From contig JAGVMW010000114.1 in the NCBI GenBank assembly GCA_020053615.1, forward strand, positions 1 to 33,303: a stretch of DNA of 33,303 bases. The letters run 5' to 3'. Origin of the DNA: an archaeon (lineage in GTDB: Archaea > Nanobdellota > Nanobdellia > Woesearchaeales > GW2011-AR9). The position numbers and the translations under genes were made by a program. Below the pieces are notes generated by a model. The model had not been told where the DNA came from. It saw nothing but the letters and a program-made list of their open reading frames with translations, and searched no databases. This document shows positions 3,566 to 28,113 of the stretch, in pieces (position 1 is the stretch's first letter; every line of letters begins with the position of its first letter).

Positions 3566-3800
3566 AAAATTTTCTTACTGCCTAGTAGGTTCACTTCGTT
3601 CCCGAAAATCCTTAAAGTTAGTGCCTTCGTTAAATCTGGTAAAACGGAAACTCAAACAATCACTTCGTGACTATTTCTAACATTGATTTAACGACTACAT
3701 TTCATTCGACCCAAATTTTTACTTACTTTAAACGACTGGGGGGAATTCCGTAACGATAACTAAACGAAAAACGAACCGAAAAGAGGGGGGGCGAGAAAAC
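3566..3800 (-). repeat. Inverted copy of the leader-type (S2) repeat, abutting the hsdR stop codon
   Basis: The reverse complement contains GTTTTCTCGCC (3790-3800), ACGGAATTCCCCCC (3738-3751), TTAAAGTAAGTAAAAA (3716-3731) and GGCAGTAAGAAAA (3570-3582). These are in the same order as 13712-13904. Confidence 0.75.
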
Positions 3801-6800
3801 TTATTTACTAACCCAACCTTTAGCAATTAATTCTGCTTGCTTCAAAACTGTTTCTATTGCGTTCTTTTCCTTATCTGGAGGATAACCATATCTCCTTAAA
3901 ATCTTCTTGACTTTCAAACGCATTCCTGCTTGCACGCTTTCTCTTTGAGTCCAATCTATGGTTACACTATTTCTAATCATTTCAGTTAGTTCTAATGCGA
4001 TTTTTCTAAGAGCATCATCACCTAAAACTTTAACTGCACTATCATTGACTTCAAGAGCATCGTAAAATGCAACTTCATCATCATTCATATTAAGCTCTTT
4101 GCCTCTGCCTTTCTCATCTCTGACTTTTCTTGCTAATTCAATTAACTCTTCTATAACTTGGGTAGCTTCTATACTCCTATTTGTATATTTCTTGATGGTT
4201 TTATCAAGCAAATCCATAAATGATTTAGCTTGAACCATATTTTTCTTTGACATAATTCTTATTTCATCGTTGAGCAATTTCTTCAATGCTTCAAATGCGA
4301 GATTTTTCTGAGGCATTTCCTTGACTTCTGCTAAGAAACCTTCGGATAAAATTGAGAGTTCTGGCTTTTGAATTCCTGCTGCTTCAAAAATATCTATAAT
4401 TCTATCAGAGATAACCGCTTTTGACAAAATCTGCTTAATCGCTGAATCAAATTTATCCTGTAATTCTCTCTTTGTTTCTGTTGTTTTGGTGATAGCAGAT
4501 TTTATTGCTTGAAAAAGTCCCACTTCATCCTTTATTTTCATTGCTTTATCATGCGGAACAGCTAAAGAAAACGCTTTTAGAAGAGCAGTTACTTCTCTGG
4601 CAAATCTTTCTTTTTTATCTTTTTCTTTGAGAATATGCTCCATCGCAGACGGAACAAACGACACTCTCTCCTCTGGTCTAAGTTGGAAGAATTTTTTATA
4701 ATTGAAGCCATAGAACATATCTTTTACAACTTCGTACTTTTCCATCATTAGCTTAACTGCTTGCTCTTGGTCAAAAGTCGGTTTTCCTTTTCCGCCACTT
4801 TCAGTATAATTCATTAATGCTTTTTTTAGTTCAACACCAACGCCCATATAATCAACTATCAAACCGCCTTCTTTTCCAGGATAAACTCGGTTTACTCTGG
4901 CAATTGCCTGCATTAAAGTATGCCCTTTAATCGGCTTGTCTAAATACATGGTATGAAGAGAGGGAGCATCAAAACCTGTCAAAAACATATCCCTGACAAT
5001 CATTAATTTAAGCTCATGTTTGTCATCTTTCAGGTTGTCGCCTATCTGCTTTCTTCTTTTTCTGTTTCTTATGTGCTGTTGCCATTCTTTTGGATCAGAA
5101 GCTGAACCAGTCATAACAACTTTTATGAAACCTTTATCATCGTCTTCATTATGCCATTCTGGCTTTAATCTGATTATTTCATTGTAGAGTTCTACGCAGA
5201 TTCTTCTGCTCATGCCAACAATAATTCCTTTTCCTTCTAAAACAGACAATCTCTCCTCAAAATGCTTAACTATATCTTTGGAAATTCTTGCTATTCTTCT
5301 TGGAGAACCCGCAACTTTTTCTAATCTTGCCCACTTACTTTTGAGTATGTCCTTGCATTCAATTTCTTCTCCTTCGGTTGCTTCCTCGAAATCTGTGTCT
5401 ATCTTTGGTCTTTCTTCTGGTTTTAATTCAAGTTTTGCTAATCTGCTTTCATAATAAATTCTTACAGTAGCTCCATCTTCAACTGCCTGCTCAATATCAT
5501 AAACATCAACATATTTTCCGAATACTGCTGGCGTGCTTCTATCTGATTTCTCAATCGGAGTTCCTGTAAATCCAATAAAAGAGGCATTTGGAAGAGCATC
5601 TCTTAGATATTTTGCATATCCGTACGTGATTAATGCCTTGTCTTTCTTGTCTAATATCTTCGCAGAAAAACCATATTGGCTTCTGTGAGCTTCATCAGCT
5701 ATAACTATAATATTGTCTCTTTCTGAAAGAATCGGATACGTTTCTCTGTTCTCTTCTGGGAAAAATTTTTGTATTGTGGTGAAAACAACTCCGCCAGAAG
5801 ACACTTTGAGAAGTTTTTGCAGTTCTTTTCTGTCTTCTGCCTGTGTTGGTTTTTGCCTTAGAACATCTTGGCACTTTCCAAAAGTCCCAAAAAGCTGGTC
5901 GTCTAAATCATTTCTATCAGTTAAGACTATAATTGTAGGATTGTCAAATTCTCTTATCAATTTGCCGGTATAGAAAACCATTGTCAGCGATTTTCCAGAA
6001 CCTTGCGTATGCCAGACAACTCCTGCTTTTTTATCGCCTTTTGGCTGTTCTTTAACTGATGAAAGTCCGTAAGATTCTGGGGCTTCTCTTACTTGCATAA
6101 TTGATTTTGCGCTGGCTCTTCTGGTTGATTCTATTGCTTTAATTACAGCCCAATATTGATGATAAGCAGCTACTTTCTTTTTTGTCTCTTTATCTTTCTC
6201 AAAAACAATGAAATTTCTGATAATGTCTAATATTCTTTTCTTATCGCACATTCCTCTGAGTAGGATTTCTATTTCAGTAAATCCTTTCTTTGGCTTTTCT
6301 CCGTTGATAGTTTTCCACTGCATAAACCTCTCTCTTTCAGAGGTTATTGTTCCTGCTCTTGCTTCAATTCCATCACTGATAATTAAGATTTCATTAAATC
6401 TGAATAATGATGGTAGCTGTTGCATGTACGTCTGAAATTGGTCGTAAGCTGTCCAAATATCAGCTTTTTCGTCTGCCAAATTTTTTAATTCCAAAACTAC
6501 CAATGGCAAGCCATTTATGAAAAGAATAACATCTGGTCTTCTTTCAACATTATTTTCAATAATTGTAAACTGATTAACTGCTGAAAACTCATTATTCTCA
6601 AGATTTTCAAAATCAAATAATTTTACTATGATGTGTCTTTCTTCTCCACCTTTTGAGATTGGAATACTAACGCCATCAACGAGCAGTTTATGGAAACTTT
6701 CATTGTCTGCTATTAGCTTCTGGCTTTCGCTTCTGAGAATTTGCTTTAAAGCTAACTCTCTGGCTTCTTCTGATATGCTTGGATTGATTTTTCTGAGAGC

Positions 6801-6968
6801 ATATCTTAATTTATCAACAAGAACAACATCTTTATAGTCTGATCTTAAAGCAGAGCTTCCGCCAGGCAGATATTCCTCATTGCTTCCTCTTATTATATCA
6901 TAGTCTAAAGCCTTGAGAATATTCAAAACATTCTCTTCAACGTGTTCTTCAGTTATGAGGTGTTTCAT
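3801..6968 (-). CDS. hsdR: Type I restriction enzyme R subunit
   Basis: The N-terminal PD-(D/E)xK region reads [19 protein letters not shown]. Helicase motifs are HTQGSGKS and ADEAH. The C-terminal [12 protein letters not shown] matches a DUF3387-type tail. Confidence 0.95.
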
Positions 6969-6981
6969 CTTTATTCTTCCA

Positions 6982-7338
6982 TTATACTATTTTTAGTCTC
7001 TTTGCTTCTTTAATAAATCTTTTCTGTATATCAAGAATCATAGAGGGATTTTTACTATATTTTTCATTAATTCTATTTACATCGTCTTCGTGATCCACTA
7101 TACGACCACATTGAGAGCAAATCCACTTGGGAGTGCCCATTGGAGATGAAAAAAGAGATTCGAAACTTATCTGATTGCCATTTATATCAATAATTCTTCC
7201 ATGTGGGCAAATATTCTTCAGCTGATCAAGTTTTATTTTTCTTCTGTTTTCTAAAAATTTATTTATATCAAATTTAAAGCTAAATCTAATTGCAAAAGCA
7301 GCCACAATTATTAAAATCAGTGTTTCTAAAAATGCCAT
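6982..7338 (-). CDS. Small hypothetical protein with an N-terminal TM helix and a Cys/His cluster (CPHG...CSQCG)
   Basis: The ORF is packed between hsdS and hsdR and overlaps the hsdS end by 13 nt. It has a hydrophobic N-terminus and a zinc-ribbon-like CxH...CxxC pattern. Confidence 0.45.
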
Positions 7339-8645
7339 GCTCTAACCTCAACAGGAACTCTGATTTTTCCTGATATTAATCTTGGAAGCAGGGAATCTCG
7401 GATTTGTGAGAGTATATTTTGAGTATTGATATTATCTTCACATTTAAGCATTATTTTAATGATCGAATCTTCAAATTTTGAAATAACTTCTTTACTCGGA
7501 ACTATTATGGACATATCCAATATATCGCTGGCAGATATCCTTTGGTGACTGCCACTCGTTCCCCTGGCCATCTGTACCAACTCACCTAACACGGAATGTT
7601 CTTTAAACAGAAGATATAAGTAGCAAAAAAAGGATTTATTTGGTTTGAAAACTAAAAATTCAGTTGAGCATATTGATTTTTCTTTAGCATTTATGACTGG
7701 CCAGATTCTGGGAATTCTTGGATTCAATTTAGAGAATAAGACAGACATATTAGTGACAATAAATTTGTTGCTTAATATTTCAGAACCCCTTTGATCAAAT
7801 GATGTTTTCCCGCCATCGTATGCTTCAATACTCAAGTGACTAAATATCTCTTCAGGAGAACTAACTGGATTTATTTGTTCCTTATTTTGCGTAGCAATAT
7901 TATGAATCATTCCAATTTTCCATCCTTTCGGTATCTTTCCTAACTCAGAATCAACCATTTCTCCGCCAGTAGACTTATATGGCTTTCCTTTCTCGTTTTG
8001 AAATTCAAAGTCTATAAACCATCTTTTGAAGATTGCTCGGCTTAACTCCTCCAAAACTTTATTTATCTTCTGATTAAGTTCTATTTTTAAATCTAAATCT
8101 GAGAGGATTTTAGCGATGGCAATTTGTTCAGGAAAAGAGGGGATATTGATTTCATAGCTCATAATCGAATTTTTATCTCCACGTGGCATTTTGGTTCCTT
8201 TAGAAGTCAAAACAGTAAATTCAAAAAAGTTATCTTGAGATAAATAGTAGTAAAGATATTTGTTGTTTATGCTTGATTTTTTCCTTATAACCAATACATC
8301 ATTAGAACAACCACCGGAAAATTTTGCCAACCAAAATTTCTTAAAATATGTCCTAATATTTGAGAATAAAATATCTCCTTCTCTGAATTGAGTTACCTTC
8401 CCAACTTTAGGTAATGAAGAAGCCACAGTAATCCCGCCTTTTTCAGGCAGCATATTTTCGGTTGAAATAAAATTATTCAGATTTATTTCAACAAGACTAA
8501 TCTTTTCAGTAATATATGAAGCAGTTTCTTTTAACTCTTTAACTTCCCAATCTTCAGGAATCATTCCTATTTCAGTTTGCTTCATCTTTGATGAATGCTC
8601 AGAAAACTTGTTTTCTGTTGGTTTTAATTTAGTTTGTTGTTTCAT
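7326..8645 (-). CDS. hsdS: Type I restriction enzyme specificity subunit (two target recognition domains)
   Basis: The TRD-start motif is duplicated (IPEDWEVKELKE and IPKGWKIGMIHNI). Conserved spacer helices are present (AIAKILSDLDLKIELNQK and SQIRDSLLPRLISGKI). Confidence 0.9.
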   Translation of the reverse strand: MKQQTKLKPTENKFSEHSSKMKQTEIGMIPEDWEVKELKETASYITEKISLVEINLNNFISTENMLPEKGGITVASSLPKVGKVTQFREGDILFSNIRTYFKKFWLAKFSGGCSNDVLVIRKKSSINNKYLYYYLSQDNFFEFTVLTSKGTKMPRGDKNSIMSYEINIPSFPEQIAIAKILSDLDLKIELNQKINKVLEELSRAIFKRWFIDFEFQNEKGKPYKSTGGEMVDSELGKIPKGWKIGMIHNIATQNKEQINPVSSPEEIFSHLSIEAYDGGKTSFDQRGSEILSNKFIVTNMSVLFSKLNPRIPRIWPVINAKEKSICSTEFLVFKPNKSFFCYLYLLFKEHSVLGELVQMARGTSGSHQRISASDILDMSIIVPSKEVISKFEDSIIKIMLKCEDNINTQNILSQIRDSLLPRLISGKIRVPVEVRAWHF

Positions 8646-9007
8646 TTCTTTTTTGCCTTCTTAGCCCAAAATGTAGATTTATCTCCTGCATGAAATCGTA
8701 TCTCGCCTTCTGCGACCTCATCAGGGTTAATCTTCATCCATCCGTCACCATTTGCAGAGTCGCATTCATCACTGCCCTCAAAGGTGAAATCATAAATCAA
8801 GTCCCCATCACATTTCTTAAAATCCCCATACATTGAACCTTGCACCAATCCAAAATGAAACTCCCCACTGCCTATTTGTTCTATTCTGATGAATGCCTGC
8901 ACTTCTTCATTGACATAATCATTATCCCATTCACTCATTTTTGTAATGTGCCATGTTCCAATGAAATCTTTTTTTCCTATTTTCGTTCGTTTTATTTTAG
9001 TTTTCAT
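8642..9007 (-). CDS. Hypothetical protein embedded in the Type I R-M operon
   Basis: It has 4-nt overlaps with both neighbours. I recognise no motif. Confidence 0.55.
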   Translation of the reverse strand: MKTKIKRTKIGKKDFIGTWHITKMSEWDNDYVNEEVQAFIRIEQIGSGEFHFGLVQGSMYGDFKKCDGDLIYDFTFEGSDECDSANGDGWMKINPDEVAEGEIRFHAGDKSTFWAKKAKKK

Positions 9008-10038
9008 CCTAAATCATTAAGCCTCTTTTCTATATCTTCTTTAGATGGCAGATACTTCATGAGTTCTTTAGGAAGCAATTGCGTTATTTTATATGTAGCA
9101 ACTCCAATTGGCTTTTTGGCATCGCGCAAAGCGTACTCTACTGTTGTTCTTCTCTTTTCTTTGCAGATAATAATACCTATAGAAGCATTCTCCTCATCTA
9201 ATTTAATCCGGCTATCCAATGCCGAAAGATAGAACTGCATTTTTCCGGCATATTCCGGTTTGAACTTACCCACTTTTAATTCAATAGCGACCAAACTTCT
9301 TAATTTTCGATGATATAATAACAAATCAATAAAGTATTCTTCATCATCTACTTCCATCCTATATTGGCTTCCAACGAAACAGAAATAGTTGCCCATCTCT
9401 GATAGGAAATTTTTGATTCTACTAACAAGGGCATTTTCCATTTCTTTTTCAGAGTGTTCTTCTCCCAACTCCAAAAAATCAAAAGTATACTCGTCTTTGA
9501 CCGCTAATTTAGCTTGATTTTGATATTTAACCGGAACAGTTTGGTCAAAGTTTGTTTGGTTGAGAAGATATTTTTCATAAGACTTGTTCTCAATTTGATG
9601 GATTAGGACATCTTTAGTCCAGCCAAACTTTCTGGTCATCTTAATATAAAACTCCCGCTCTAAATCATCTTTGCATTTCTCCATAATGATTATGTTTTTT
9701 ACCCAGCTTATTTCTCGCACCAATGGTGCGAGTTTTTCACTAGCTTTGTAATTTAGGTAAAAATTTCTCATTCTCCAAAGGTTTGCTGAAGAAAAACCTC
9801 CTACGCTAGGATATTCCGCTTGTAAATCTTTAGCTAAAGTTTCTACGATAGATTTACCCCAATCCTGCTTCTCAACTATTTTCTTACCAATATCCCAATA
9901 CAAACCAATGAGTTCTTTATTTACGGCTTTGAGTGCGGAATATTGGGCTTCTCTGATTCTTTGTTTTATTTCAATAAGAAAATGCCGATAATCATCTTTG
10001 GTTAGGTTTTTATTCATGATTTTACCTCCACTTCCCAA
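9004..10038 (-). CDS. DUF1016/YhcG-family PD-(D/E)xK nuclease
   Basis: The N-terminal region reads IREAQYSALKAVNKELIGLYWDIGKKIVEKQ...GFSSANLWRMRNFY. The C-terminal FIDLLLYH...VAIELKVGKF is a D...ExK nuclease core. Confidence 0.85.
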   Translation of the reverse strand: MGSGGKIMNKNLTKDDYRHFLIEIKQRIREAQYSALKAVNKELIGLYWDIGKKIVEKQDWGKSIVETLAKDLQAEYPSVGGFSSANLWRMRNFYLNYKASEKLAPLVREISWVKNIIIMEKCKDDLEREFYIKMTRKFGWTKDVLIHQIENKSYEKYLLNQTNFDQTVPVKYQNQAKLAVKDEYTFDFLELGEEHSEKEMENALVSRIKNFLSEMGNYFCFVGSQYRMEVDDEEYFIDLLLYHRKLRSLVAIELKVGKFKPEYAGKMQFYLSALDSRIKLDEENASIGIIICKEKRRTTVEYALRDAKKPIGVATYKITQLLPKELMKYLPSKEDIEKRLNDLG

Positions 10039-10041
10039 TCT

Positions 10042-10497
10042 TCAGGAATCATTCCTTTCCAGAAGCTTTTCATGGCTCTGGAATTTTTTGGCAAAATAAT
10101 CTTTTTTTGCGCAGGCTTCCCGAATTTCATCAATATGCGCTATATGTTTGTTTTCGTTAAGCCATTCATAAAATAAATATACGCTGAAAATAGTAGAAAG
10201 CAGTTCTGATACTGTGTTAAATATCCACTTATCAATGCACCACCTGAAAAAAGTCTCTAAAGTATACCTATCAATATCCTGCGGGCTTTCTTCTTCATCT
10301 ATTGCTAGATAGTCGTTAATATACAATTCTACATTGTTAAGGTGCTTTTTTATTGTTTTTTTGCTGAGGTTCTTTCGTAATAAGTACTCTTCAAATTGGT
10401 GGAGCAGTGCGATATTTTCTTTTTGAATTTTTTCGTATTTTTCCATTGTCCTACCTTCATCCCTTCTTTCCCCAGTAATATGTATTTCTCTCATCAA
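10042..10497 (-). CDS. Hypothetical protein with weak resemblance to the tyrosine-recombinase N-terminal SAM-like (core-binding) domain
   Basis: FEEYLLRKNLSKKTIKKHLNNVELYINDYL has the pattern of a core-binding domain. The true start may be the ATG at 10446 (MEKYEKIQ). Confidence 0.4.
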   Translation of the reverse strand: MMREIHITGERRDEGRTMEKYEKIQKENIALLHQFEEYLLRKNLSKKTIKKHLNNVELYINDYLAIDEEESPQDIDRYTLETFFRWCIDKWIFNTVSELLSTIFSVYLFYEWLNENKHIAHIDEIREACAKKDYFAKKFQSHEKLLERNDS

Positions 10498-10498
10498 A

Positions 10499-11989
10499 CT
10501 ACTTCCTTACACGCCCCCGATGTTTTAATCTCCCTCTCTGAATTACAACATATCCCCCGGTTTTCTTAGAGCCTACTTTTGTAATCCTTCCTTGATGTAT
10601 TAATTCTTGCAAGTAGCGCTTTAATGTTCCAAGGGGCATCTTTGTATCCTGTTCAATATCTGCCCGTTTACAGTTAGGATTTAGCTCGATAAAGTGAAAG
10701 ATTGTCTCAGATTTTATCGGCTCACTTATCGGCTCACTTATCGGCTCATTTAGTGGCTCAAATTTAGGATGAATCTTCAATCTTGTAATAAACTGGACTC
10801 TATCATCATCCGTAATAAATACTGGTGCAGGTGAACCATTATTTTGCATAGCACTTCTTATTTTCCTAAATCCGGTATTCTTTCCCTCTGTGAGCTTTAA
10901 TTCTTTTAAAAAATCACCAATTCTCCTATTTCTATACCGTTTAGAGATTACGATAGCATCATTAATATTATCTTTATTCAATGGAGGAAGAGGCCCAGGA
11001 TAACTGATTATATCAATTCGGTCAAGTTCGATTCTTACTTCAATCGGTGCGTCTATCTCATAGCTTTTATGATAAACAGCATTAACTAATGCTTCTTCAA
11101 TTGCAGTATAAGGATATGAAAAAAATCTTATTGCCTCTGCTTTAGTTGGCACTTTTATTACTTGTTCTTGTATTGCCGAATTTTTTATGTACTGTAAAGC
11201 AGAAATGATTTGATTTTGGAGGGGCCCGCTAAATCTTTCTTCTCTGAATTTATCACCGATTTTATCTTGGAATATGGTAACCTCAATCCAAGGGGTTTTA
11301 ATATATTTTTCTGGCTCATTGGAAAAAAATAATAGCCCTACGTTTTTAGGCTTCATCATTTCGTTAGGTCCTTCAATAATATTGAGGCTCTTGCAAAGCT
11401 CTTCAAAACTTAATGCTTTTGCACTTAATCCTGAATGAATATTCTGCAAATATGATTTAATCAACTCTACATTCAAGTCATTTAGCGATGCTTTCTGGTT
11501 TATTTGATCATCATAAGGGATCTGGTTAGACATTCCAATTAATTCTTTTTCTTCTTCTTTATTTGCAACAACTGTTGATGACGAATGACGAATATAGTAT
11601 TTATATTCTGATGCAACCCCAAACGATTTTGGTGCTTTGTACGGTCTTGCAGGGCCACCGGGGCAATATAAAATTATGAGGTTTTTAGAATTATATTTTG
11701 TGGGCTCAACAATGGGATAATAAGGCCATTGAATTTTGTTAGATAATTCTACTATTTTTTTCAAGATAAAATCTATCTGATTTTCGGCAATTCCAATTAT
11801 TCTTTTTTTATCGTCAACACCGATTATAATGTAGCCCCCTCCCCAATTATTAAAATCATTTGCAAAAGCACACATAGTATGAACTATTGATTCAGGATTA
11901 AACCCTTCTTTTAATTCAATTCTTTCTGATTCAATTAAATGTTCTTCAATTAATCGTTTGGCGTTTATTGGCAGCAGCATTTTATTCAT
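10499..11989 (-). CDS. AlbA_2 (Schlafen-like) + HATPase_c_4 + C-terminal wHTH protein, often annotated as a RecG-like putative DNA-binding regulator
   Basis: The AlbA_2 region reads ESERIELKEGFN...CAFANDFNNWGGGYIIIGVDD. The ATPase-like region reads EEALVNAVYHKSYE...RNRRIGDFLKELKLTEGKNTGFRKI. The C-terminal wHTH reads LGTLKRYLQELIHQGRITKVG. Confidence 0.8.
   Translation of the reverse strand: MNKMLLPINAKRLIEEHLIESERIELKEGFNPESIVHTMCAFANDFNNWGGGYIIIGVDDKKRIIGIAENQIDFILKKIVELSNKIQWPYYPIVEPTKYNSKNLIILYCPGGPARPYKAPKSFGVASEYKYYIRHSSSTVVANKEEEKELIGMSNQIPYDDQINQKASLNDLNVELIKSYLQNIHSGLSAKALSFEELCKSLNIIEGPNEMMKPKNVGLLFFSNEPEKYIKTPWIEVTIFQDKIGDKFREERFSGPLQNQIISALQYIKNSAIQEQVIKVPTKAEAIRFFSYPYTAIEEALVNAVYHKSYEIDAPIEVRIELDRIDIISYPGPLPPLNKDNINDAIVISKRYRNRRIGDFLKELKLTEGKNTGFRKIRSAMQNNGSPAPVFITDDDRVQFITRLKIHPKFEPLNEPISEPISEPIKSETIFHFIELNPNCKRADIEQDTKMPLGTLKRYLQELIHQGRITKVGSKKTGGYVVIQRGRLKHRGRVRK
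10714..10761. repeat. In-frame 12-bp tandem repeat: two perfect and two degenerate units of TTATCGGCTCAC
   Basis: Units lie at 10714-10725, 10726-10737, 10738-10749 and 10750-10761. They encode the EPISEPISEPI linker of the AlbA_2 protein. Confidence 0.85.
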
Positions 11990-11997
11990 TCCTTTTT

Positions 11998-13521
11998 TTA
12001 TATCTTAAACCCAATCCCTTCCAGATTCTTCTTTATTTCAACATCCAACTTCTGCCCTTCTTTCATCTGTTCAGATAATTCAGCAGTTAATCGTTTCATC
12101 TTCTCTTCAAATGCTTCGTCGTCTTCTACTTCTTCTTGGATTCCAACATATCTTCCAGGAGTCAGGATAAAATTATTCTTCTCAACCTCTTCCAATTTAG
12201 CGGATTTGCAAAGGCCAGTAACATCTTCATATTTGAGCTTGTTTTCTCCTCTCCATGCGTGATAAGTGGAAGATATTTTCTTAACATCCTCATCAGTTAG
12301 TTCTCTATGTCTTCGGTCAATCATCACACCCATATTTCTGGCATCAATAAACAAGATTTGCCCTCTTCTGTCCCTAAACGAATGGTCTTTTTTATCTCGT
12401 GTAACAAACCACAAGCAGGCAGGAATTCCAGTATTGTAGAATAACTGGGCAGGTAATGCTACCATGCAATCAACAATATCAGAAGTAATCATATCCTTCC
12501 TTATTTCGCCCTCATTAGAAGTATTTGATGACATTGAGCCATTTGCCAGAACAAAGCCAGCTACGCCAGTAGGATTCAAATGATGAATAAAATGCTGAAC
12601 CCAGGCAAAATTGGCATTATTTTTTGGAGGCACTCCAAACTTCCATCTTACATCTTCCTGCAATAATTCGCCATTCCAATCTGAATCATTAAACGGAGGA
12701 TTGGCAAGAATAAAATCTGCTTTCAAATCTTTATGCTGGTCATCATGGAAAGCATCGCCCCATTTGATATTTGAGTCAATCCCTCTGATAGCCATATTCA
12801 TCTTACAAAGCTTCCATGTTGTCTGGTTGCTTTCTTGTCCATAAACCGAAATGTCTTTTATTTTTCCGCCATGAGCCTCTACAAACTTTTCGGATTGAAC
12901 AAACATTCCACCTGAACCACAGCAGGGATCAAATATTCTTCCTTTGTATGGCTCTAACATCTCAGTTAATAGTTTTACAATAGAACGAGGAGTATAGAAC
13001 TGCCCGCCTTTCTTTCCTTCAGCAGAGGCAAATTCACCTAAAAAATATTCATAGACTCTTCCAAGAATGTCTTTACTACGATTCTCTTTATCACCAAGTC
13101 CAATCGTTCCGATTAAATCAATCAATTCCCCTAATCTTTGCTTGTTCAATCCTGGACGAGCATAATTCTTTGGCAAAACTCCTTTAAGTGAGGGATTGTC
13201 TCTTTCAATAATATCCATAGCTTCATCAAGAAATTTTCCAACTTCTGGCTTTTTTGCATTGGCTTGAAGATGCTCCCATCTTGCTACTTTTGGGACAAAG
13301 AAAATTCTCCGCGAAACATACTCATCAACATCTTCTGGATCTGAATCTTTCTCTTTTTTCAGTTTTTCATAAACTTCAGTAAAAGCATCAGAAATATACT
13401 TTAAGAAAATCAAACCTAAAACAACGTGCTTATATTCAGCAGCATCCATATTGCTTCTTAGCTTATCAGCAGAAGACCATAATTTTTGTTCAAACCCTAA
13501 ATTAGCACCGTTATTTGACAT
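11998..13521 (-). CDS. hsdM: Type I R-M N6-adenine DNA methyltransferase subunit
   Basis: It has motif [12 protein letters not shown], motif [10 protein letters not shown] and an HsdM N-terminal domain ([33 protein letters not shown]). Confidence 0.95.
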
Positions 13522-13663
13522 TTTCTCGCCCCCTCTTATCTAACTCTGCTTCCATGCACTTCTCAAACTGACGAGATACTATCCAGCCTTCTTTCTTGCA
13601 TATCTCTCTATACTTATCGTAAAGTTCAGAGTTTACTTTCAATGTGATGTTTTTTGTTTTCAT
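13511..13663 (-). CDS. Ribbon-helix-helix (CopG/Arc-like) small protein RHH-1, translationally coupled to hsdM
   Basis: [41 protein letters not shown] has a beta-strand plus two-helix pattern. The ATG at 13663 is preceded by GGTGGGGTGA. The track ORF (to 13693) begins at a GTG and is probably over-extended. A paralog lies at 32630-32779. Confidence 0.7.
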
Positions 13664-13711
13664 TTCACCCCACCTGATAAGAAATACTTGCACATACTTA
13701 TAAATATTACT

Positions 13712-13904
13712 GTTTTCTCGCCACTAACTACTGAATACTGAAACTCCCACCCTACCCACCCAAAGCGTCTTCTTTTTGTAAAAAGAAGCAAAAACAAAAC
13801 GGAATTCCCCCCTACGAACGACTAAACTAATGTCTGCTTCGCAGTAATTGATGTTAAAGTAAGTAAAAACTACGGCACCTATCTGATTTTCGGCAGTAAG
13901 AAAA
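13712..13904 (+). repeat. Leader-type (S2) repeat upstream of RHH-1/hsdM; the inverted partner of 3566-3800
   Basis: It contains GTTTTCTCGCC (13712-13722), ACGGAATTCCCCCC (13799-13812), TTAAAGTAAGTAAAAA (13854-13869) and GGCAGTAAGAAAA (13892-13904). In addition, 13799-13853 is near-identical to 32898-32953. Confidence 0.8.
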
Positions 13905-13934
13905 CTTCTCCGCTTTTTTTCTGCGGAAAAAAAT

Positions 13935-13984: not shown

Positions 13985-15541
13985 CCGTCCCGCAATCCCC
14001 TCCCAAAACACAATTTAAATCTTCATTCTTCTCAGAAAAAAATAAAATCCCTCATTTAACACTCCACTGCTCCTTTCATCCTCCAAATCTTCATTAAATT
14101 ATGAGCAATACAGGCCAAATTAAACTCAATCTTCACCTTTTCCTTGCCTCGAAGCAGGAATTCCCTGAATCCCAAGTTCTGCTTGATATTCCCATACACC
14201 GGCTCGACCGTAATTTTCCGCAAAGAATACACTTTCTTTGCTTCATCTGTTTTCATCTTGTCTCTCATCCTCAGCCGTTCACGGAAGTAGAACGGCACAT
14301 CTTTTTTCTTCCCTAATTTATCATTATAATAACTCAATATCTTCATGCCGTTTTTCCTCGTGTACTGAAACTTGAAGTAAAATCGATGTTTTCCGACGAT
14401 TAATTCATCTCTCTTGGCATCATACTCATACTGGTCGTGATTCAAACTTTGCTCCTTGCCGTCAAACTCTTGTGCTTGTGCACGAGAAGGCACATATAAA
14501 TCAATCTTATTTTCCTCCGCAAATTTAATGTTCCCCGCGTCACTATAACCGCAGTCAACTCCCACCTTTGTGTCATCTTTCAAAGTTATATTCTCTTTAA
14601 CATTCTTCATCTGCGGGATGAACTGGTGAACATCATGCTTGTCCTGGCAGATCTCATTGGCAATAATTATCTGATTCCTGTCGACAGTTAGCTGAGCATT
14701 GTAGCTCAGCTCGGAATGCCTTTTCTTGGTCTGCATGGCTCTGGCTTCAGGATCAGAAAGGGAGACTTTCTTCAACCCATACTTTTCCAGTTCATTTTTA
14801 GCTTGTTCAATATTCTTTTTGACCTTCTTCTTATCTTCTGCCTCATGGAATTCCCTAACTATTTTCTTAAGGTCTCTTTTGTCAATTCCAGTAAGCCCTT
14901 CTTCCCTATCGTCGAAGAGTTGGTCTTCCAGTTCATCCAGAGCTATATCTTCTTTGATCATCTTTTCGATAGCTTGGTCCAGTTTGTCCAACCCTTTCTT
15001 ATCCATATATCTCTTGCTACCAGCGTAGGCCTTTAAGGTTGTTCCATCGATGCTGATAAAGCTGAGGTCAGTAAGGTTGTGCCTGGCGGCGATTTCCACC
15101 GTTTTTTTGAATGCATCTTTGACAAATTCAGGATGTTCCATCCTGAAGCGGTTTATCGTCCTGAAATCTGGATGGACTTTCTCTGCCAGATACATGAAAA
15201 TAAAGTTTTCTCTGGTTGCCCTGGCCAATCTTCTGGAAGATCTGGTTTTGCAAAGCATCCCGTAAACCAAGATTTTCATGATAATTCTCGGGTGATAGGC
15301 AGGATGCCCTGCGCCTTCGTAGATCAAATCAAAGTCGGAGAAATCTAACTCATCAACATAGTTTTCCACTAGGAAACAGATGTGGTCTTTAGGAATGATT
15401 TCTGTTATCGACGGTGGCAGAAGCCAATTCTGGTCTTGGTAAGAATTTATGTATGCCATATTGCACCTCATTTTATTGATGATAAGATTATAACTTGTCG
15501 ACGGGAGAACTAGTATTTATATTTTGTGAATTATGGGACGG
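13985..15541 (-). mobile_element. IS element (IS1182/IS5-like) inserted into a junction element
   Basis: It encodes a single DDE transposase. The ends are imperfectly inverted: CCGTCCCGCAATCC...AAAACACAATTTAAAT at 13985 onward, and the reverse complement of 15500-15541 reads CCGTCCCATAATTC..AAAATATAAATAC. The boundaries could instead be 13992/15534 if CCGTCCC/GGGACGG belongs to the target hairpin. No clear target-site duplication was seen. Confidence 0.6.
14056..15471 (-). CDS. DDE transposase, IS1182/IS5 superfamily
   Basis: The N-terminal DUF772-type region reads HPAYHPRIIMKILVYGMLCKTRSSRRLARATRENFIFMYLA. The C-terminal region reads VEPVYGNIKQNLGFREFLLRGKEKVKIEFNLACIAHNLMKI. Confidence 0.85.
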   Translation of the reverse strand: MRCNMAYINSYQDQNWLLPPSITEIIPKDHICFLVENYVDELDFSDFDLIYEGAGHPAYHPRIIMKILVYGMLCKTRSSRRLARATRENFIFMYLAEKVHPDFRTINRFRMEHPEFVKDAFKKTVEIAARHNLTDLSFISIDGTTLKAYAGSKRYMDKKGLDKLDQAIEKMIKEDIALDELEDQLFDDREEGLTGIDKRDLKKIVREFHEAEDKKKVKKNIEQAKNELEKYGLKKVSLSDPEARAMQTKKRHSELSYNAQLTVDRNQIIIANEICQDKHDVHQFIPQMKNVKENITLKDDTKVGVDCGYSDAGNIKFAEENKIDLYVPSRAQAQEFDGKEQSLNHDQYEYDAKRDELIVGKHRFYFKFQYTRKNGMKILSYYNDKLGKKKDVPFYFRERLRMRDKMKTDEAKKVYSLRKITVEPVYGNIKQNLGFREFLLRGKEKVKIEFNLACIAHNLMKIWRMKGAVEC

Positions 15542-15719: not shown

Positions 15720-16295
15720 ATGAAAACTGAACTCAAAATCCTTAAGAACTTTATAGAAACTAAAAAACCAAAAACGATTAGAGAGATCGCTCAACAAATT
15801 AAATCTGATTACAGAATAACCCATATTGCCGTGCAAAGACTTATTGAAAAAAATGCTCTTAAAGTCCAAACTGTGGGGAAAAGTTCTTTATGCTCGCTGA
15901 ATGAGAAATACTTTGGAAGTTATATCTACGAAACTGAAAACGAAAGAAAAGAAGAGATTCTCAAAAATAAGAATATAAACCAACTTTACAAAGAAATTAT
16001 GTCCAAAGTAAAAACAGGTTCTTTTATCCTGCTTTTATTTGGTTCTTACGCAAAAAACAAGCAGACAAAAGTGTCAGATATTGATCTTCTATTCATCTCA
16101 AATGAAAGTGGCTTTGAAAATAGAATTTCAGACATTCTTTCATTACTCCCATTAAAGACTCATGCTCTGGTATTTACAGAAGAAGAATTTATCCGGATGA
16201 AAGACTCAAAAAAGTCAAATGTAATCCAAGAAGCAATAGAAAGTAATATAATACTGTATGGGATTGAAGCTTATTATAGGATAAAAAATGCTTGA
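15720..16295 (+). CDS. wHTH + minimal nucleotidyltransferase (MNT) protein
   Basis: It carries the GSYAKNKQTKVSDIDLLF NTase signature (GS...DxD). The N-terminal wHTH reads IREIAQQIKSDYRITHIAVQRLIEKNAL. Confidence 0.75.
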   Translation: MKTELKILKNFIETKKPKTIREIAQQIKSDYRITHIAVQRLIEKNALKVQTVGKSSLCSLNEKYFGSYIYETENERKEEILKNKNINQLYKEIMSKVKTGSFILLLFGSYAKNKQTKVSDIDLLFISNESGFENRISDILSLLPLKTHALVFTEEEFIRMKDSKKSNVIQEAIESNIILYGIEAYYRIKNA

Positions 16296-16824
16296 CGAAA
16301 AACGAATTAAAGAAGCGGAATCAAACGTGAGGCAGTATCTACAAGATAATCTGCTTAAGAAACAGACAGATGAGACGGCTAGAGCAATGTATATTGAAAA
16401 TGCTGATCTTTCACTGGAGACGGCTAAGAGACTTCTTGCTTTAGAAAGTAAAGATTATCAGCCTTATCTCTGGGTAATTGTCCCCTCTTACTATTCAATG
16501 TATTATATTGCCAATGCCATCCTTTTAAAATTAGGGTATAAAGTAGGAGATAAAATAAGTCATAAAGTAACTGCCGATGCCATTATTGTTTTTGTCAGAA
16601 ATAAACTCAAGAAAAGCCTCCTAGAAGAATATGAGAATGCTCAGGCAGACGCACTGGAATTAATGTCACAGCGAGCCGATGTTTTATTGAAATCCCTTGA
16701 CGAAGAACGACAAAAACGGTCAAAATTTCAATATCAAATGGATGAGCAGGTGAAACGAGGAAAAGCAATAACTTCTCTGGAACGGGCTAAAGAATTTGTG
16801 TTTGAGATGAAGAAGTTGTTATAG
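16288..16824 (+). CDS. HEPN-like (UPF0332-type) partner of the MNT
   Basis: It overlaps the MNT gene by 8 nt. The protein looks all-helical, and YYSMYYIANAILLKLGYKVGDKISHKVT resembles archaeal HEPN/UPF0332 proteins. I did not see a clean Rx4-6H motif. Confidence 0.5.
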   Translation: MLDEKRIKEAESNVRQYLQDNLLKKQTDETARAMYIENADLSLETAKRLLALESKDYQPYLWVIVPSYYSMYYIANAILLKLGYKVGDKISHKVTADAIIVFVRNKLKKSLLEEYENAQADALELMSQRADVLLKSLDEERQKRSKFQYQMDEQVKRGKAITSLERAKEFVFEMKKLL

Positions 16825-19226: not shown

Positions 19227-19395
19227 GGTCGGGTCGGCAAACAGGGGTTTACAGGAATTTTACTCGGCTCGTAAAATTCCCAAATGTCAATCCAGCTCTC
19301 AAAAATTTCTCAGCTCTGATTTTTGTGGGCTACCTCAAAAATCGAGGAGAAATTTTTGGAGGGATTGCCACTTCTGTAAACCCCATACGTTAAAC
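19227..19395 (+). repeat. Junction element copy A2: 166-nt structured repeat plus core CATAC-GTTAAAC
   Basis: It matches 118-283 except at 19325-19336. The closing base pair of the apical hairpin is swapped relative to copy A1 (G19325/C19336 versus C216/G227). A TTTTTATATT box at 19193-19202 lies about 25-30 nt upstream. Confidence 0.8.
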
Positions 19396-19399
19396 TCAA

Positions 19400-19434
19400 T
19401 AAAATTTCTGTTAGACTAAACTTAAGGGGTGCTT
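19400..19434. repeat. Left arm of the inverted repeat flanking the GIY-YIG/Mrr/Zn-ribbon block
   Basis: TAAAATTTCTGTTAG (19400-19414) and GGGGTGCTT (19426-19434) are exact reverse complements of 20913-20927 and 20900-20908. Confidence 0.85.
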
Positions 19435-21257: not shown

Positions 21258-21509
21258 CTAAATGCTTCCTTGATGCACAAGAATTACAGCACCACCAGAT
21301 ACTATAGTTCTAAGATTTCCCACCTGACGCTGGAAGATTTCACTGCCATTAAAAAATGCAGCGTGTCCGTGAGGGCTACCAATATTTGGATAACCATAGA
21401 TTACATCAGTCCTTACACCACTAGCTGAACCACGATCATTCCAATTGAACCAACCGTCGTTTGTGCGAATACTATTATTTTGGTACATATCTGAACTCTT
21501 TATGAGCAT
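21258..21509 (-). CDS. Hypothetical 83-aa Gly/Asn-rich protein
   Basis: Its start overlaps the stop of the Cas4-like gene as TAATG. I recognise no motif. Confidence 0.4.
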   Translation of the reverse strand: MLIKSSDMYQNNSIRTNDGWFNWNDRGSASGVRTDVIYGYPNIGSPHGHAAFFNGSEIFQRQVGNLRTIVSGGAVILVHQGSI

Positions 21510-22183
21510 TACTTTTTAATTATTTCGCAAGAATTCTGAACCCATTCACAAAACCCACATTCTTCAGAGGGAGCGGGAATTTCAGCTTCTAAAACTTGAA
21601 CAACTTTCTTAAAAATATTCTCGGCGTTCTTGATATTAACTTTAATCTTGATTAAATCCTTATGGAAGTCTACATCACCATTCTCATGGACTTTGCTAGG
21701 ATGGTAAAATAATAGATAAGTATAATCCTCTGTCTCATAGCCATTCTTTCGTAAGAGAAAATTGTAGATATCCATCTGGTCTTGATAATGCTCGTGCGTA
21801 TCTTCTTTTAATGGGTAGCCTCTGGTTTTATAATCTAAAACAATCAGTTTCTTTCCCTTTTGGAGCAGATTATCAATAGCTCCATGAAAGAGATTACCTT
21901 TTTTATCAGTCCATGGTATTCCTTTGAAATTGCTTCTCCAAACTTTGAGGAGTTCTTCATTGTCAAAGAGCTTTACTTCACCTTTTAATTGTTGAAGTTC
22001 TGGAGGCAATTCTCCTCTTTTCATAAAGCGGTCAAAATGTTCTTTGAGAATTTTATCCATTCCACTCGGAAGAGATGGGAAAATGGAATCTGGACGTTTA
22101 ATGTTCTTGTTTAAAGCAAGCCAGAAACATCTAGGGCAATCTTTCAGTAAGCTTAGGCTTGATGGGCTGAATTTGTAGGTCAT
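21509..22183 (-). CDS. Cas4/RecB-like PD-(D/E)xK nuclease with a Cys cluster
   Basis: Motifs are GAIDNL, VLDYKT and QDQMDIY (QxxxY). Cysteines occur at CPRC (N-terminal) and CGFCEWVQNSC (C-terminal), as in Fe-S Cas4/AddB-type nucleases. Confidence 0.75.
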   Translation of the reverse strand: MTYKFSPSSLSLLKDCPRCFWLALNKNIKRPDSIFPSLPSGMDKILKEHFDRFMKRGELPPELQQLKGEVKLFDNEELLKVWRSNFKGIPWTDKKGNLFHGAIDNLLQKGKKLIVLDYKTRGYPLKEDTHEHYQDQMDIYNFLLRKNGYETEDYTYLLFYHPSKVHENGDVDFHKDLIKIKVNIKNAENIFKKVVQVLEAEIPAPSEECGFCEWVQNSCEIIKK

Positions 22184-22184
22184 T

Positions 22185-25100
22185 TTACGAAATAAAATCT
22201 AAAGTTATTAATCTTAATTTCTTCTCATCAAACTCGTCTAAGCCTTCTTTTTCATAAACCAGCTTATCCGAAACAAAATTAGTAACATCTACAATTAGTT
22301 TTTTCCAATTTTTATGTCCTTTTCTATAATTATTCCAAACTTTTCTAATAATTTGAATCCTCTTCTTAGTTAAACTAATGTTAACTAATTTCTTTCTAGT
22401 CTCTTCCCATTGTTTTTCTAATGCATTATCTTCCGGAAAATCTAAAATGTAATCCTCTATATCTCTCTCTATTTCGATAATTAATTGGCTCAGAAACTTT
22501 TTACTTCTTTCCTTACTCCAATCCTGTTGTTTTGTATCTGCTTCTTCCTTTACTCGTATTGAATTATATGTTTCTTTAATATCTTTAAGAATATTGGTGT
22601 TAATATCATATACTTCCTCGAAAAATTTAGGAATAACTCTTTTTTCGCTCTCTTTACAAGAAATAAATTGAAGTATTTCGGTTTTGTTCTTAATTGATTT
22701 TCTCGATTCTAAATCATGCAAATACCAGAAATGGAAATCTTCTCCATATTCATAATAAAAGAAAATTCCCCTAATACTTTTTTTAATCAAACCACTATGA
22801 ATCCCATCAGGCAGGTTTTCTAATTCTTTCATTGAACTTTTCTTGAGGTAAGTTTTCAATGGCTGATAAAAAACTTCTCCTCCACCAAATACGTCAGCTT
22901 CCAATTCATCTAAAACTGAAGATTCTTTATCTTTTATCCTCCTGATTACTCCAAAAACTTTAGGATGGATTTTTTCACCCAAAACAGTCTGATCTAATCC
23001 TACTGACTTATCTATATTGATTATTTTGTTTTGAAGAATGTTAACTAATTTTAATAATTCTTCTAATTCATCTTCTGGGAAGAAATTGTAAATATATATT
23101 TTATCATATAATGAGCCAATCCTGTCAATTCTACCTGCCCGCTGAATCATTCTTGTTGGATTCCAATGCAAATCATAATTTATTAAAATTTGTGCGGTCT
23201 GTAAGTTTTGTCCTTCTGATAATACATCAGTGCTTAGAAGAATGTCTATTTCTTTGTTTTTAAATCGTTCTATAATTTTTTGTCTGTCTTTTGGTGTAAA
23301 ACTGCCAGAACCAGAGATTTTTTGAAGCTTGATGTTTTTGAATTCTTTTTGTTTAGAAAGATAATCATAAACATAATCTAAAGTATCTTTGTAATAAGTA
23401 AAAACTACAATTTGGCTTTTTTCGTGTAATTTCAATAATTTATCTTTAAATTCAAGTAATTTTGCATCTTTATCAGGAGTTAAGTTCTTTATTTTTTCTA
23501 ATATACTCCCTAATAGTTGAATATCAATTTTAATGTCTTTAAACATCTCTTCTTTATTGTAATTATTTATGTTGAATTTATCTAATTGTGCTAGTATCTC
23601 CTGTTCAATTTCTTCTGAATCTTCCTCAAAGTCTTCATCTTCGGCAAGTATATATTTTATTAGTTTAGTATAAGCTTGTTTAGATAAGAATTTTCCTTCT
23701 TCTAAACAATTCATCATTGTCTTTAAGAACTTGATATGACGACTAACGCTAATCCTGAATGCCTCAATACTGCTTTCTAGTCTTTTTAGAAGAATTGTTT
23801 TGAAAATACCGCCTATGGCAATCATACGATTTAAAGCCAAGATTTCTTCTTGCGTTTGCAAATTTTCTTTTTTATATCTAAGAATATTATAATAAGCCAT
23901 AGTCAGCTTTTCGGATATTATGTCCGCAATTTCGCGATACATCCCTTGGTAAGTTTGATTCAGTTTGTAATTGATTGTTTCTAGCTTCCTATCTGGAAAT
24001 GTTATTTTCTGCCCATTAACTGTTGCATTAGGATACTCTTTTTTAATATAATCTCTGGTTCTTCTGATAGAAATTTCATTTAGTAAGTCGTTTAATAATG
24101 CAGGATTGCCTCTCTTATCAATTTCTTTAAAATGGACAAATAAATCAGGAATGTTCTCTTTTATGAATGTTGCATTATCATTTCCAACAAGAAGAAGAAT
24201 CTGTGAATACAAATCCCAAATAGAATTATTGATGGGTGTGGCAGTCATAAAGAGAATTTTAGGTTTTTCACCGTTTTCTTTTGTGATAAACTCAATTAAT
24301 GTGTTCATGTTCTCCCACCTGTTAGAGAGTTGATTTCTAAGATTATGGCTTTCATCAACAATTATTAATTCTACTTCTTCTAAATGCCCGCCAGTGGCAG
24401 TTTTTGCTTTATCTAAGAAGTCTTTAGAAGCTAAATTTTCTTGTGAAAGAATATTTTCAGTAAGTTGCTTATCTTTCAATGCGGGAAGCCACATTGTTTC
24501 CTTTAATTGTGCCGGACAGATAACTAAGCATCTCTTTCTTCTAAAAAAACCAAATTCTTCTAATACTTTAAGCGCAATATATGTTTTACCTAAACCAACC
24601 GAATCAGCAACCATGACTGCCCCATATTTTTTTAAACGTGAGAAGACTCTTTGAACAGCATCACTTTGAAATTCGGTTAATTCAACATTTGAAATACCAC
24701 TTTTGTCTTTCTTTTTTTCTTCTTCCTCTGATTCTGCGGCTATTTCATCTTTTTGCAGTTCATAAAGTGATTTTATATAAATTTGAAATGGAGTGTATTC
24801 TGTAGTTCCAAATCTTGAATTTTTGAGTAAAGTGATTAATTGCTCTTTAAATTCTAAAGATTCTTTCCAGAATTTATTGAACCAGTTTTCTCTACTATAT
24901 TCAACAAACATTTTACCCTGCTGAACAGTGTTATATTCTCCTTCTCTTGTAAGCCCAGCATAAGTAAAATTGGAAGAGCCACTAACCACTAATTTATCAA
25001 AAATATAAGTTTTTCCATGCAATAGGTTTTTGTCATAAATTCTGATTTCCACATTATGTTTTTCTAAAAAAGTAATTAAATCAGTAACATGGTCTTTCTT

Positions 25101-27570: not shown

Positions 27571-27572
27571 CT

Positions 27573-28112: not shown

Positions 28113-28113
28113 T

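Follow-up and report, generated by a model that had tools for sequence, protein, structure and literature searches.

Nested genes in a woesearchaeal Type I restriction-modification operon suggest that its subunit junctions collect unrelated cassettes

Are the genes that lie between the subunit genes of a Type I restriction-modification (R-M) operon effectors kept in check by the R-M enzyme, or were they acquired independently of it and of one another? The question is raised by an operon on the minus strand of contig JAGVMW010000114.1 (GenBank assembly GCA_020053615.1), from an archaeon of the Woesearchaeales; the window, as we call the whole stretch that was analyzed, covers positions 1 to 33,303 of this contig. 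Read in the direction of transcription, the operon holds a small gene of the ribbon-helix-helix (RHH) type, hsdM, a gene for a protein with AlbA_2, GHKL ATPase and winged helix-turn-helix (wHTH) domains, p151, a DUF1016/YhcG gene, p121, hsdS, p118 and hsdR. Here p118, p121 and p151 are short names for the embedded genes of 118, 121 and 151 aa, the last of which is given a corrected length of 134 aa below. A preliminary description of this DNA had taken the five extra genes for a possible set of R-M-guarded effectors. The answer to which we come, and which we regard as reasonably probable, is that the Type I R-M operon is apparently intact and that the junctions between its subunit genes are a hot spot for independently acquired, unrelated cassettes.

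Gene embedding in Type I R-M operons and the guard idea are both already published. For BREX, DISARM and Type I R-M systems together, Payne et al. (bioRxiv 10.1101/2024.01.29.577857) report 17,432 non-redundant embedded genes, single out 145 'PDC' candidates, and put forward 'guilt-by-embedding' with PrrC as an example of a guard. Our operon resembles the guilt-by-embedding systems (Type I R-M, BREX, DISARM, Hma) in having same-strand genes between hsdM, hsdS and hsdR, one of which, the DUF1016 gene, corresponds to PDC-S02. It differs from them in that the survey dealt with RefSeq genomes and allowed few embedded genes, whereas the lineage studied here is one of uncultured archaea with up to eight genes per gap, and in that three of the five families found here are absent from PADLOC. 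That the locus falls into a known class of defense operons with embedded genes is a caution against taking it for a new system of guarded effectors.

Gene content and scars at the subunit junctions

Judged by the domain content of HsdM, HsdS and HsdR in Pfam, NCBIfam and PADLOC, the operon belongs to Type I. HsdM matches PF02384 (E 1.6e-114), PF12161 (E 7e-27) and the PADLOC model MTase_I (E 2e-231); HsdS matches Specificity_I of PADLOC (E 3e-72 over residues 158-431, plus a second stretch); and HsdR shows a nuclease domain at its N terminus, followed by an SF2 motor and a domain at its C terminus (PF04313, PF18766/PF04851, PF22679, PF11867), with a score of 611 bits against TIGR00348 (E 3e-183, cut-off 285). 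All nine open reading frames (ORFs) lie where they had been placed, and the picture of five extra genes nested in an apparently intact hsd operon stands. So does the claim of close spacing, as neighboring genes either overlap, by 4-13 nt, or are separated by gaps, of 8-52 nt. The widest of these gaps had been given as a possibility only. Since the 22 aligned homologues of p151 are all 121-148 aa long and begin with MEKYE, the gene almost certainly starts at ATG 10446 and codes for 134 aa, which makes the 52-nt gap before it real.

The same spacing fits the further claim of a single transcription unit, as does the single archaeal-type TATA promoter that is predicted 5' of the RHH gene, and such a unit is plausible. 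Bacterial-type scans, which are unsuited to an archaeon, gave seven terminator-like sites in the region against 5.8 expected, which is no excess, and no sigma-70 promoter above the shuffled expectation. Because these scans returned background and are inapplicable here, the single unit is only inferred.

The contents of the junctions vary widely between operons. We compared 122 loci, retrieved through homologues of p118, p121 and p151 with no hsd-based retrieval and annotated by tblastn, phmmer and clustering; many of the contigs are short. They yielded 15 dereplicated related operons, mostly from DPANN, with an HsdM mostly 65-78% identical to that of the window (about 30% in a few). Between hsdM and hsdS these operons hold one to eight genes, and between hsdS and hsdR one to five, from about 45 families that include DUF3800, Bro-N, PRiA4_ORF3, DUF6398, RQC/KilA-N-HTH_40, Fic, small zinc-ribbon proteins, AlbA2 and DUF1016. 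The gene set of the window is repeated in none of them, except in part in a close relative (L044, 77-89% identity), which has four of the five embedded genes in the order AlbA2, p151, p121, an hsdM 3' stub, a 455-aa gene, hsdS and p118, and lacks DUF1016. The proposal that the five genes form a coherent set of R-M-guarded effectors is not supported by this comparison: they do not co-vary across the 15 operons, and the p151, p121, DUF1016 and AlbA2 families are all widespread outside hsd loci. The preliminary description would have given up its own reading for unrelated insertions with promoters of their own, and about half of this was found, as the genes do appear to be unrelated insertions but have no such promoters.

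How such insertions may have occurred is suggested by duplicated ends of the subunit genes. A 27-nt direct repeat has two identical copies in the window (chance expectation 4e-9 to 2e-7), the one inside the 5' end of hsdS and the other an orphan fragment of that end, which encodes the last four codons and the stop of p151 and lies 12 nt ahead of the ATG of DUF1016. Copies of the hsdS 5' end thereby bracket DUF1016, p121 and the start of hsdS (1,488 nt). The start of DUF1016 is more likely ATG 10017, which has GGAGGT ahead of it, so that the 24-nt spacer before it is itself a fragment of the hsdS 5' end. Apart from this spacer and the 52-nt gap, the genes of the operon are spaced by -13 to +13 nt. 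Because the window carries these recombination scars, we take at least DUF1016 and p121 to have come as an insertion. Other loci bear scars of the hsdM 3' end. In L046 a 69-nt repeat of it (94% identical) surrounds a 294-aa gene and p121, and in L044 an orphan hsdM 3' fragment follows p121. In L027 and L028 what is left of hsdM is its first 55 codons (98% identical to those of the window), which run into p151 and a cargo array; hsdS and hsdR are absent there.

All loci were then scanned with a profile of the hsdS leader (ATG AAA CAA ... AAA TTC AAA CAA ACT GAA ATA GGA ATG ATT CCT GAA GAT TGG GAA GT), which encodes the peptide MK..KFKQTEIGMIPEDWEV and holds a 13-nt palindrome, AGGAATGATTCCT. 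The profile found 38 distinct copies, 16 of them away from any hsdS gene and a few more at the head of short hsdS stubs; the copies not belonging to hsdS coincide with, or shortly precede, the starts of p121, DUF3800, AlbA2, DUF1016 and members of four clusters (c13, c27, c115, c146). Nearly all matches (86 of 88) are on the hsd strand. A leader copy accompanies 15 of the 59 genes embedded between hsdM and hsdS, in seven or eight of the 15 operons, with break points that vary within about 25 nt. Since the copies are this few and the break points variable, we read the scars as traces of homology-assisted or illegitimate recombination, and consider a universal att-type site less likely. A comparison of leader identity within and between loci was uninformative, as loose pattern matching drew in spurious sites. 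Duplicated scars of the hsdS leader or the hsdM end were not found in the consulted parts of Payne et al. or in the other literature on embedded genes that we compared; as evidence, at the level of sequence, for how embedding may happen, duplicated junction stubs appear to be new.

The scars could also be those of a dedicated system of cassette capture, in which the palindromic hsdS leader would be a site akin to the attI/attC of integrons, p151 a possible DNA-binding accessory, and cassettes would be excised and inserted as units. The leader copies are indeed strictly co-oriented and placed at the 5' boundaries of cassettes, their break points cluster in the first 25 nt or so behind TEIG, p151 heads cargo arrays in three further loci (L023, L027, L030) as in the window, and direct repeats around DUF1016 and p121 are what integration of a circle would leave. 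We nonetheless find dedicated capture highly improbable. Three quarters of the cassettes have no detectable leader copy and the break points are not fixed; hsdM 3' fragments serve as junctions too, so that homology-driven or illegitimate recombination fits better; and p151 has no catalytic domain, its fusions being to DUF7309, DUF6930 and SEC-C. Integrons have an adjacent integrase, whereas no tyrosine or serine recombinase gene was found among the scanned ORFs (most of those of at least 84 aa in the 33-kb window). Recombination at conserved hsdS sequences is likewise known from hsdS shufflons and invertons. Those, however, have inverted repeats, several hsdS genes and an invertase, and swap specificity, whereas the window has direct repeats, one hsdS, no invertase that we could find, and an insertion of unrelated genes.

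In the reading that we prefer, that of a hot spot for unrelated cassettes, transcription would start from one TATA-type promoter upstream of the small RHH repressor gene. Cassettes would have come in through recombination where conserved sequence bounds a junction, that is, at the 3' end of hsdM and the 5' leader of hsdS, and each insertion event could leave a duplicated stub of the end concerned. Each cassette would most likely act singly and would gain co-transfer and co-expression with the R-M genes. The hsdS-hsdR junction has been proposed before as a recombination hot spot, in the literature on TgvAB (VPI-2 of Vibrio cholerae) and DarTG2 (enteropathogenic Escherichia coli), two experimentally proven defenses embedded in Type I R-M operons, of which DarTG2 has the regulator RptR at the operon head. 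These share with our operon the independent modules between hsdS and hsdR and the small repressor gene in first place; they differ from it in belonging to other families and to bacterial hosts and in having one module each, where the window has five genes in two gaps and a head gene of the RHH type.

Several observations weigh against this reading. The 4-nt overlaps that join DUF1016, p121, hsdS and p118 could be selected translational coupling, which would mean functional integration and not mere hitch-hiking. Recurrent adjacencies of AlbA2 with p121 and of hsdS with p118 hint at real partnerships that the cassette model leaves unexplained. Because only a quarter of the embedded genes show a leader scar, the route of recombination may differ between cassettes, and no recombinase gene was found among the scanned ORFs of the window. 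Finally, the single transcription unit is read from spacing and one promoter-like site, and the sample of contexts is biased, since its loci were found through homologues of p118, p121 and p151.

Table 1. Features of the hsd operon and its upstream flank, by position in the window
Feature	Position	Strand	Basis or remark
hsd operon, nine consecutive ORFs	13693-3801	-	ORF calls and translations
hsdR, restriction/translocase subunit, 1055 aa	3801-6968	-	HSDR_N, SWI2_SNF2/ResIII, T1R_D3-like, T1RH-like_C
Embedded gene 5 (p118), predicted membrane/zinc-ribbon protein, 118 aa	6982-7338	-	Overlaps hsdS end by 13 nt
hsdS, specificity subunit, 439 aa, two target-recognition domains	7326-8645	-	Methylase_S PF01420, two stretches
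27-nt direct repeat, copy 2, inside hsdS 5' end (codons I-G-M-I-P-E-D-W-E-V)	8542-8568	-	Leader profile E 2e-18
Embedded gene 4 (p121), predicted eight-stranded beta-barrel, 121 aa	8642-9007	-	AlphaFold2 (AF2) model; 4-nt overlap with both neighbors
Embedded gene 3, DUF1016_N + YhcG_C, predicted PD-(D/E)xK nuclease, ~337 aa from ATG 10017	9004-10017 (ORF to 10038)	-	Pfam
27-nt direct repeat, copy 1, AGGAATGATTCCTGAAGATTGGGAAGT, orphan hsdS 5' fragment	10030-10056	-	Repeat search; leader profile (nhmmer) E 2e-6
Embedded gene 2 (p151), stand-alone SAM-like (core-binding-type) domain, 134 aa	10042-10446	-	Homologue-based start, Pfam
Embedded gene 1, stand-alone 'Schlatpase' (AlbA_2 + GHKL ATPase + wHTH), 496 aa	10499-11989	-	Pfam, PHROG
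hsdM, Type I methyltransferase subunit, 507 aa	11998-13521	-	HsdM_N + N6_Mtase
RHH/Arc-like protein, ~50 aa, first operon gene	13511-13663	-	ORF; overlaps hsdM start by 11 nt
Probable archaeal promoter, TATA-like TTTATAA inside AGTAATATTTATAAGTATGTGC	13696-13711	-	~35-45 nt upstream of RHH start
Insertion sequence (IS) transposase (DUF772 + DDE_Tnp_1)	14056-15471	-	Directly upstream of operon head; outside operon

Two putative nucleases and the guard model

Two of the embedded genes appear to code for enzymes of defense type, as had been proposed. The first is a 496-aa protein with the AlbA_2 + GHKL supradomain called 'Schlatpase', which occurs in about 60,000 prokaryotic proteins and is known from R-M operons, those of Poribacteria among them, either alone or fused to HsdS (bioRxiv 10.64898/2026.05.29.728809). 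Both domains score above their gathering cut-offs (PF04326, 68.3 bits against 25.3, at residues 20-141; PF13749, or HATPase_c_4, 47.9 bits against 26, at 314-399), and the protein matches the N-terminal SLFN and GHKL part of the SLFN-pAgo model of PADLOC (E 2.7e-27). The preliminary Schlafen-like call is borne out by an acidic triad of the form E-x4-E...D (E20, E25 and D59/D60) and a CAFAN motif (C40 followed by AFAN44), both read by eye. Going by descriptions of these proteins and not by a residue alignment, E20 and E25 have the spacing of the E17/D22 pair that was mutated in CbCash, and triad and SAFAN motif are as in RzAgo. Regulated cleavage of tRNA is the activity of the Schlafen domain in SLFN-pAgo and Cash proteins (Cash tRNases: PMC13462974), which share with the 496-aa protein the two-domain core and, as far as can be read by eye, the acidic triad and the SAFAN-like motif. 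Where they have an Argonaute or a Csx15 sensor, our protein has neither, and ends instead in a wHTH (MarR-type PHROG matches at residues 426-483) behind a tandem-repeat linker. By analogy it may be an ATP-switched Schlafen nuclease acting on tRNA, with the wHTH as its sensor or regulator.

Ahead of the wHTH, the linker consists of a 12-nt unit in tandem, which encodes EPIS three times (10714-10760). The corresponding linker of L044 (L044:111-152) has KTRE three times, and the homologue in L050 apparently has three copies of an 11-nt unit. It looks like a variable repeat whose unit differs from operon to operon. A gene of the AlbA2 type lies directly upstream of a p121 homologue (47-79% identity) in at least four distinct loci, L050, L057, L060 and L074, and one gene away from it in L053 and L077. 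The pair could be a two-gene module or an effect of the hot spot.

The second enzyme, the DUF1016 protein, is on its sequence a member of the candidate-defense family PDC-S02: it matches that PADLOC model (PDLC04831) over its full length (residues 9-342, E 1.9e-145), in addition to DUF1016_N and YhcG_C of Pfam (E 5e-61 and 2e-45) and phrog_22762 (E 8e-94). A D...E-L-K motif can be read by eye in 'YFIDLLLYHRKLRSLVAIELK' of its translation, and the protein would be a DNA nuclease of the PD-(D/E)xK type. In the consulted sections of Payne et al. (bioRxiv 10.1101/2024.01.29.577857), PDC-S02 is described as no more than a candidate defense. As early as 2005 a Type I R-M cluster of Methanosarcina was noted to contain a YhcG homologue, and DUF1016 is statistically enriched beside invertible R-M genes.

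Either nuclease could in principle be guarded in the manner of PrrC, that is, be held latent by the HsdMSR complex and be freed as an abortive-infection nuclease by a viral anti-restriction protein. The precedent invoked in the preliminary description is real: PrrC is nearly always embedded in hsd loci, and in EcoprrI (hsdM-hsdS-prrC-hsdR) it is a latent nuclease in a place equivalent to that of the Schlafen-type gene here. Prokaryotic Schlafen domains, moreover, are latent tRNases in need of an activating signal, and by eye the window protein retains both the acidic residues of the triad and (S/C)AFAN; fusions of Schlatpase modules to HsdS are known, and the AlbA2 gene of one related locus (L062) begins with the hsdS leader. 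What the precedent lacks is a counterpart in the window. PrrC has no similarity in sequence or domains to the window proteins, none of the nine proteins matches the PrrC/RloC model of PADLOC (E <= 0.01), and the same scan shows no PrrC-like ABC ATPase or anticodon-nuclease domain. In addition, the Schlatpase and DUF1016 families are not restricted to hsd loci but occur overwhelmingly outside them (YhcG of E. coli is an example), and the embedded sets vary from operon to operon. We consider guarding unlikely. For the set as a whole nothing speaks in its favor, and it is most plausible for the Schlafen-ATPase singly, which, in an archaeal R-M operon, offers a compact test case for how general PrrC-like guarding is.

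The small proteins p151, p121 and p118

The three small proteins define families that are held by no library, p151 being reached only through its SAM-like domain. All their homologues are metagenomic, and those with a name come from metagenome-assembled genomes (MAGs) of Woesearchaeota, Nanoarchaeota, Pacearchaeota or an 'archaeon'; going by these names, the window is probably a DPANN contig. No viral relatives were found in three alignment-based scans of IMG/VR or in the PHROGs, and we rejected a viral origin of p118, p121 and p151, there being nothing in either collection.

The p151 protein is not free of motifs, as had been thought, for it reaches the gathering score of PF02899 (24.0 bits, cut-off 22.3) among the N-terminal SAM-like domains of phage integrases, with PF13495 at E 4e-5; the best match among PDB sequences, the N-terminal domain of XerA (5hxy, residues 38-120, E 0.087), is weak but consistent. 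Its family has 557 representatives in a library of 1.84 billion proteins, most of them stand-alone and of 130-150 aa. Of ten longer relatives, five are fused to DUF7309, DUF6930 or SEC-C and the others have no recognized second domain. Neither these ten nor p151, which ends at 134 aa, has the catalytic domain of an integrase (R-H-R-Y), and we rejected the idea that p151 is part of an integrase, as it has neither that domain nor integrase fusions. Three of five distinct contexts of p151 are outside intact hsd operons (L023, L027, L030), where it stands at the head of arrays of small genes of no assigned function; the other two are the window and L044. One of these arrays, on a contig of a Woesearchaeota MAG (L027:8694-11835), has the order RHH gene (88% identical), hsdM stub, p151 homologue, hsdS-leader stub, tetratricopeptide-repeat protein, and an array with a 49%-identical p121 homologue. 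By its sequence L027/L028 is a decayed or rearranged relative of the window operon.

The p121 protein had been described as having no recognized motif, and it matches no family of four libraries (Pfam, NCBIfam, PADLOC and PHROG), as is also the case for p118; a profile search of PDB sequences gave nothing meaningful. Its AF2 model (pLDDT 85) has eight antiparallel strands and a disordered N-terminal tail that resembles the hsdS leader. Foldseek returned weak calycin-like or fatty acid-binding protein-like matches, the best being CRABP2 and NanoLuc (E 3e-3, TM-score 0.42-0.50). Among its 55 homologue clusters, the close homologues (at least 57% identity) are mostly found between hsdM and hsdS, often directly before hsdS, and also in non-hsd arrays (L001, L004). 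Distant homologues (40-45% identical, 108 aa), which are among the most distant of 80 loci kept from a metagenome scan (L086-L122, e.g. L114:8889-10312), lie 0-10 nt downstream of an IS5-family transposase (DUF772 + DDE_Tnp_1), or overlap it, on 32 contigs. Because transposase and small gene diverge in step (55-100% identity), the distant homologue looks like an integral passenger of the IS. The family thus links R-M operons of DPANN-type contigs with IS5 elements on distantly related metagenome contigs. Both p151 and p121 may come from a common stock of small cargo genes that non-hsd arrays and, in bacteria, IS5 elements draw on as well.

The case of p118 is different. It had been called a transmembrane/zinc protein, and its sequence and AF2 model (pLDDT 87) agree with this, predicting a long N-terminal hydrophobic helix, a zinc ribbon of the form C-x-H...C-x2-C and two C-terminal helices; C44, H46, C74 and C77 are invariant in 47 sequences. 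No structure in the PDB matches the model below E = 1, and a profile search of PDB sequences gave weak zinc-finger noise only. Alone among the embedded families, p118 is mostly linked to hsdS: in 11 of 13 distinct loci, among them one from a Methanosarcinales MAG and one on a contig binned to the candidate phyla radiation (CPR), it follows hsdS either at once, mostly with a 4-nt overlap, or after one intervening gene, and the tie holds even where other genes part p118 from hsdR.

It is from this tie that the idea of dedicated accessory subunits draws its strength, with p118 as a membrane anchor or modulator on HsdS, and with a controlling role for the RHH protein and perhaps also for the wHTH domain of the 496-aa protein. 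Non-homologous proteins of transmembrane and zinc-ribbon make-up (c20, c21, c301) hold the same position elsewhere, and the RHH gene is reused with its promoter atop a second operon, much as RptR-type regulators are. On the other side, in two loci the gene that precedes the p118 homologue is not hsdS but one for the large subunit of PolD (L033) or a topoisomerase-like one (L040), p118 has no structural match in the PDB, and five of six hsd operons retrieved through p121 that cover the region downstream of hsdS are without it. Accessory subunits as a general account are in our view unlikely. As the only embedded gene with a strong positional tie to hsdS, p118 is nonetheless suggested to be the best candidate for a true accessory of the R-M enzyme, also under the hot-spot reading. 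A bolder combination would make of the leader and the hsdM 3' end the dedicated sites of an integron-like capture platform, possibly assisted by p151, with co-transcribed arrays of up to eight cargo genes that each receive the translation start of hsdS, and of p118 a previously unrecognized Type I accessory subunit; this we judge very unlikely.

Blocks of hsdS, p118 and hsdR are also present in L036 (a MAG of Candidatus Staskawiczbacteria, CPR) and L039 (a Methanosarcinales MAG), with 43-54% identity to the window for p118 and 45-49% for HsdR, which suggests cross-domain transfer of the operon or mis-binning. The unrelated transmembrane proteins with CxxC...CxxC that occupy the position after hsdS (L007:9790-10265, L039:10364-10797 and L021:9408-10167, in clusters c20, c21 and c301) have the same make-up as p118 at the junction of hsdS and hsdR, and the families have no detectable homology between them.

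The operon head and the defense island

For the first gene of the operon, the most likely start codon is ATG 13663, behind a GGTG-rich site. Its assignment to the RHH class relies on weak matches to Arc-like repressor PHROGs only (E about 1e-3), and its product is probably the repressor of the operon; the TATA-like block upstream of it is probably an archaeal promoter. An RHH paralogue (32630-32785, 85% identical) heads a second defense operon, and the duplication takes in the gene together with about 350 nt upstream (13521-13869 and 32634-32969, 82-89% identical), TATA block included; the 35-nt promoter block is 89% conserved at 32803-32837, upstream of the paralogue. Because gene and promoter region are duplicated atop a second operon, we take the RHH protein for a probable regulator at operon heads. 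Its place corresponds to that of the RptR-type regulators of R-M islands, to which it has no homology. The RHH-hsdM pair is also present in L027.

The 33-kb window as a whole is a defense island. Besides the hsd operon it holds an AbiE-like pair, GrpB, the IS transposase, an MNT-HEPN pair, a Bro-N protein, GIY-YIG and Mrr nucleases, a PDDEXK_1 protein and a second large operon. The AbiEi/AbiEii-like pair (a wHTH protein and a weak AbiEii match, 1064-2423) and the MNT-HEPN pair (15720-16824) together flank the hsd operon, and the transposase separates the head of the operon from MNT-HEPN. We considered the whole operon as a transposon with terminal inverted repeats, since the stretches 3567-3799 and 13521-13907 have short inverted matches to each other. 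This was rejected, as the alignment of the flanks amounts to a 14-nt core, GGGGGGAATTCCGT, and scattered identity.

A second duplicate in the window is a 174-nt stretch of a 74-aa ORF (118-291 and 19227-19400, 94% identical). All four repeat pairs in the window are spaced by 19,100-19,126 nt; two anchor pairs consequently enclose segments of nearly equal length, 13,403 and 13,407 nt, with wholly different gene content. The spacing of 19.1 kb could be accidental, could go back to an old segmental duplication whose contents were later replaced, or could be an effect of assembly. The second system itself, headed by the RHH paralogue on the minus strand (21509-32785), comprises an Eco57I/MmeI-like (PglX-like) methylase of 1245 aa, proteins of 274, 179 and 164 aa with no assigned family, a Peptidase_M78 protein of 379 aa with a DUF4411 protein of 168 aa, a phospholipase D (PLD) and SNF2 helicase protein of 1068 aa, and a PDDEXK_1 protein of 224 aa. 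It looks like a BREX- or DISARM-like system, itself with an embedded M78-DUF4411 pair.

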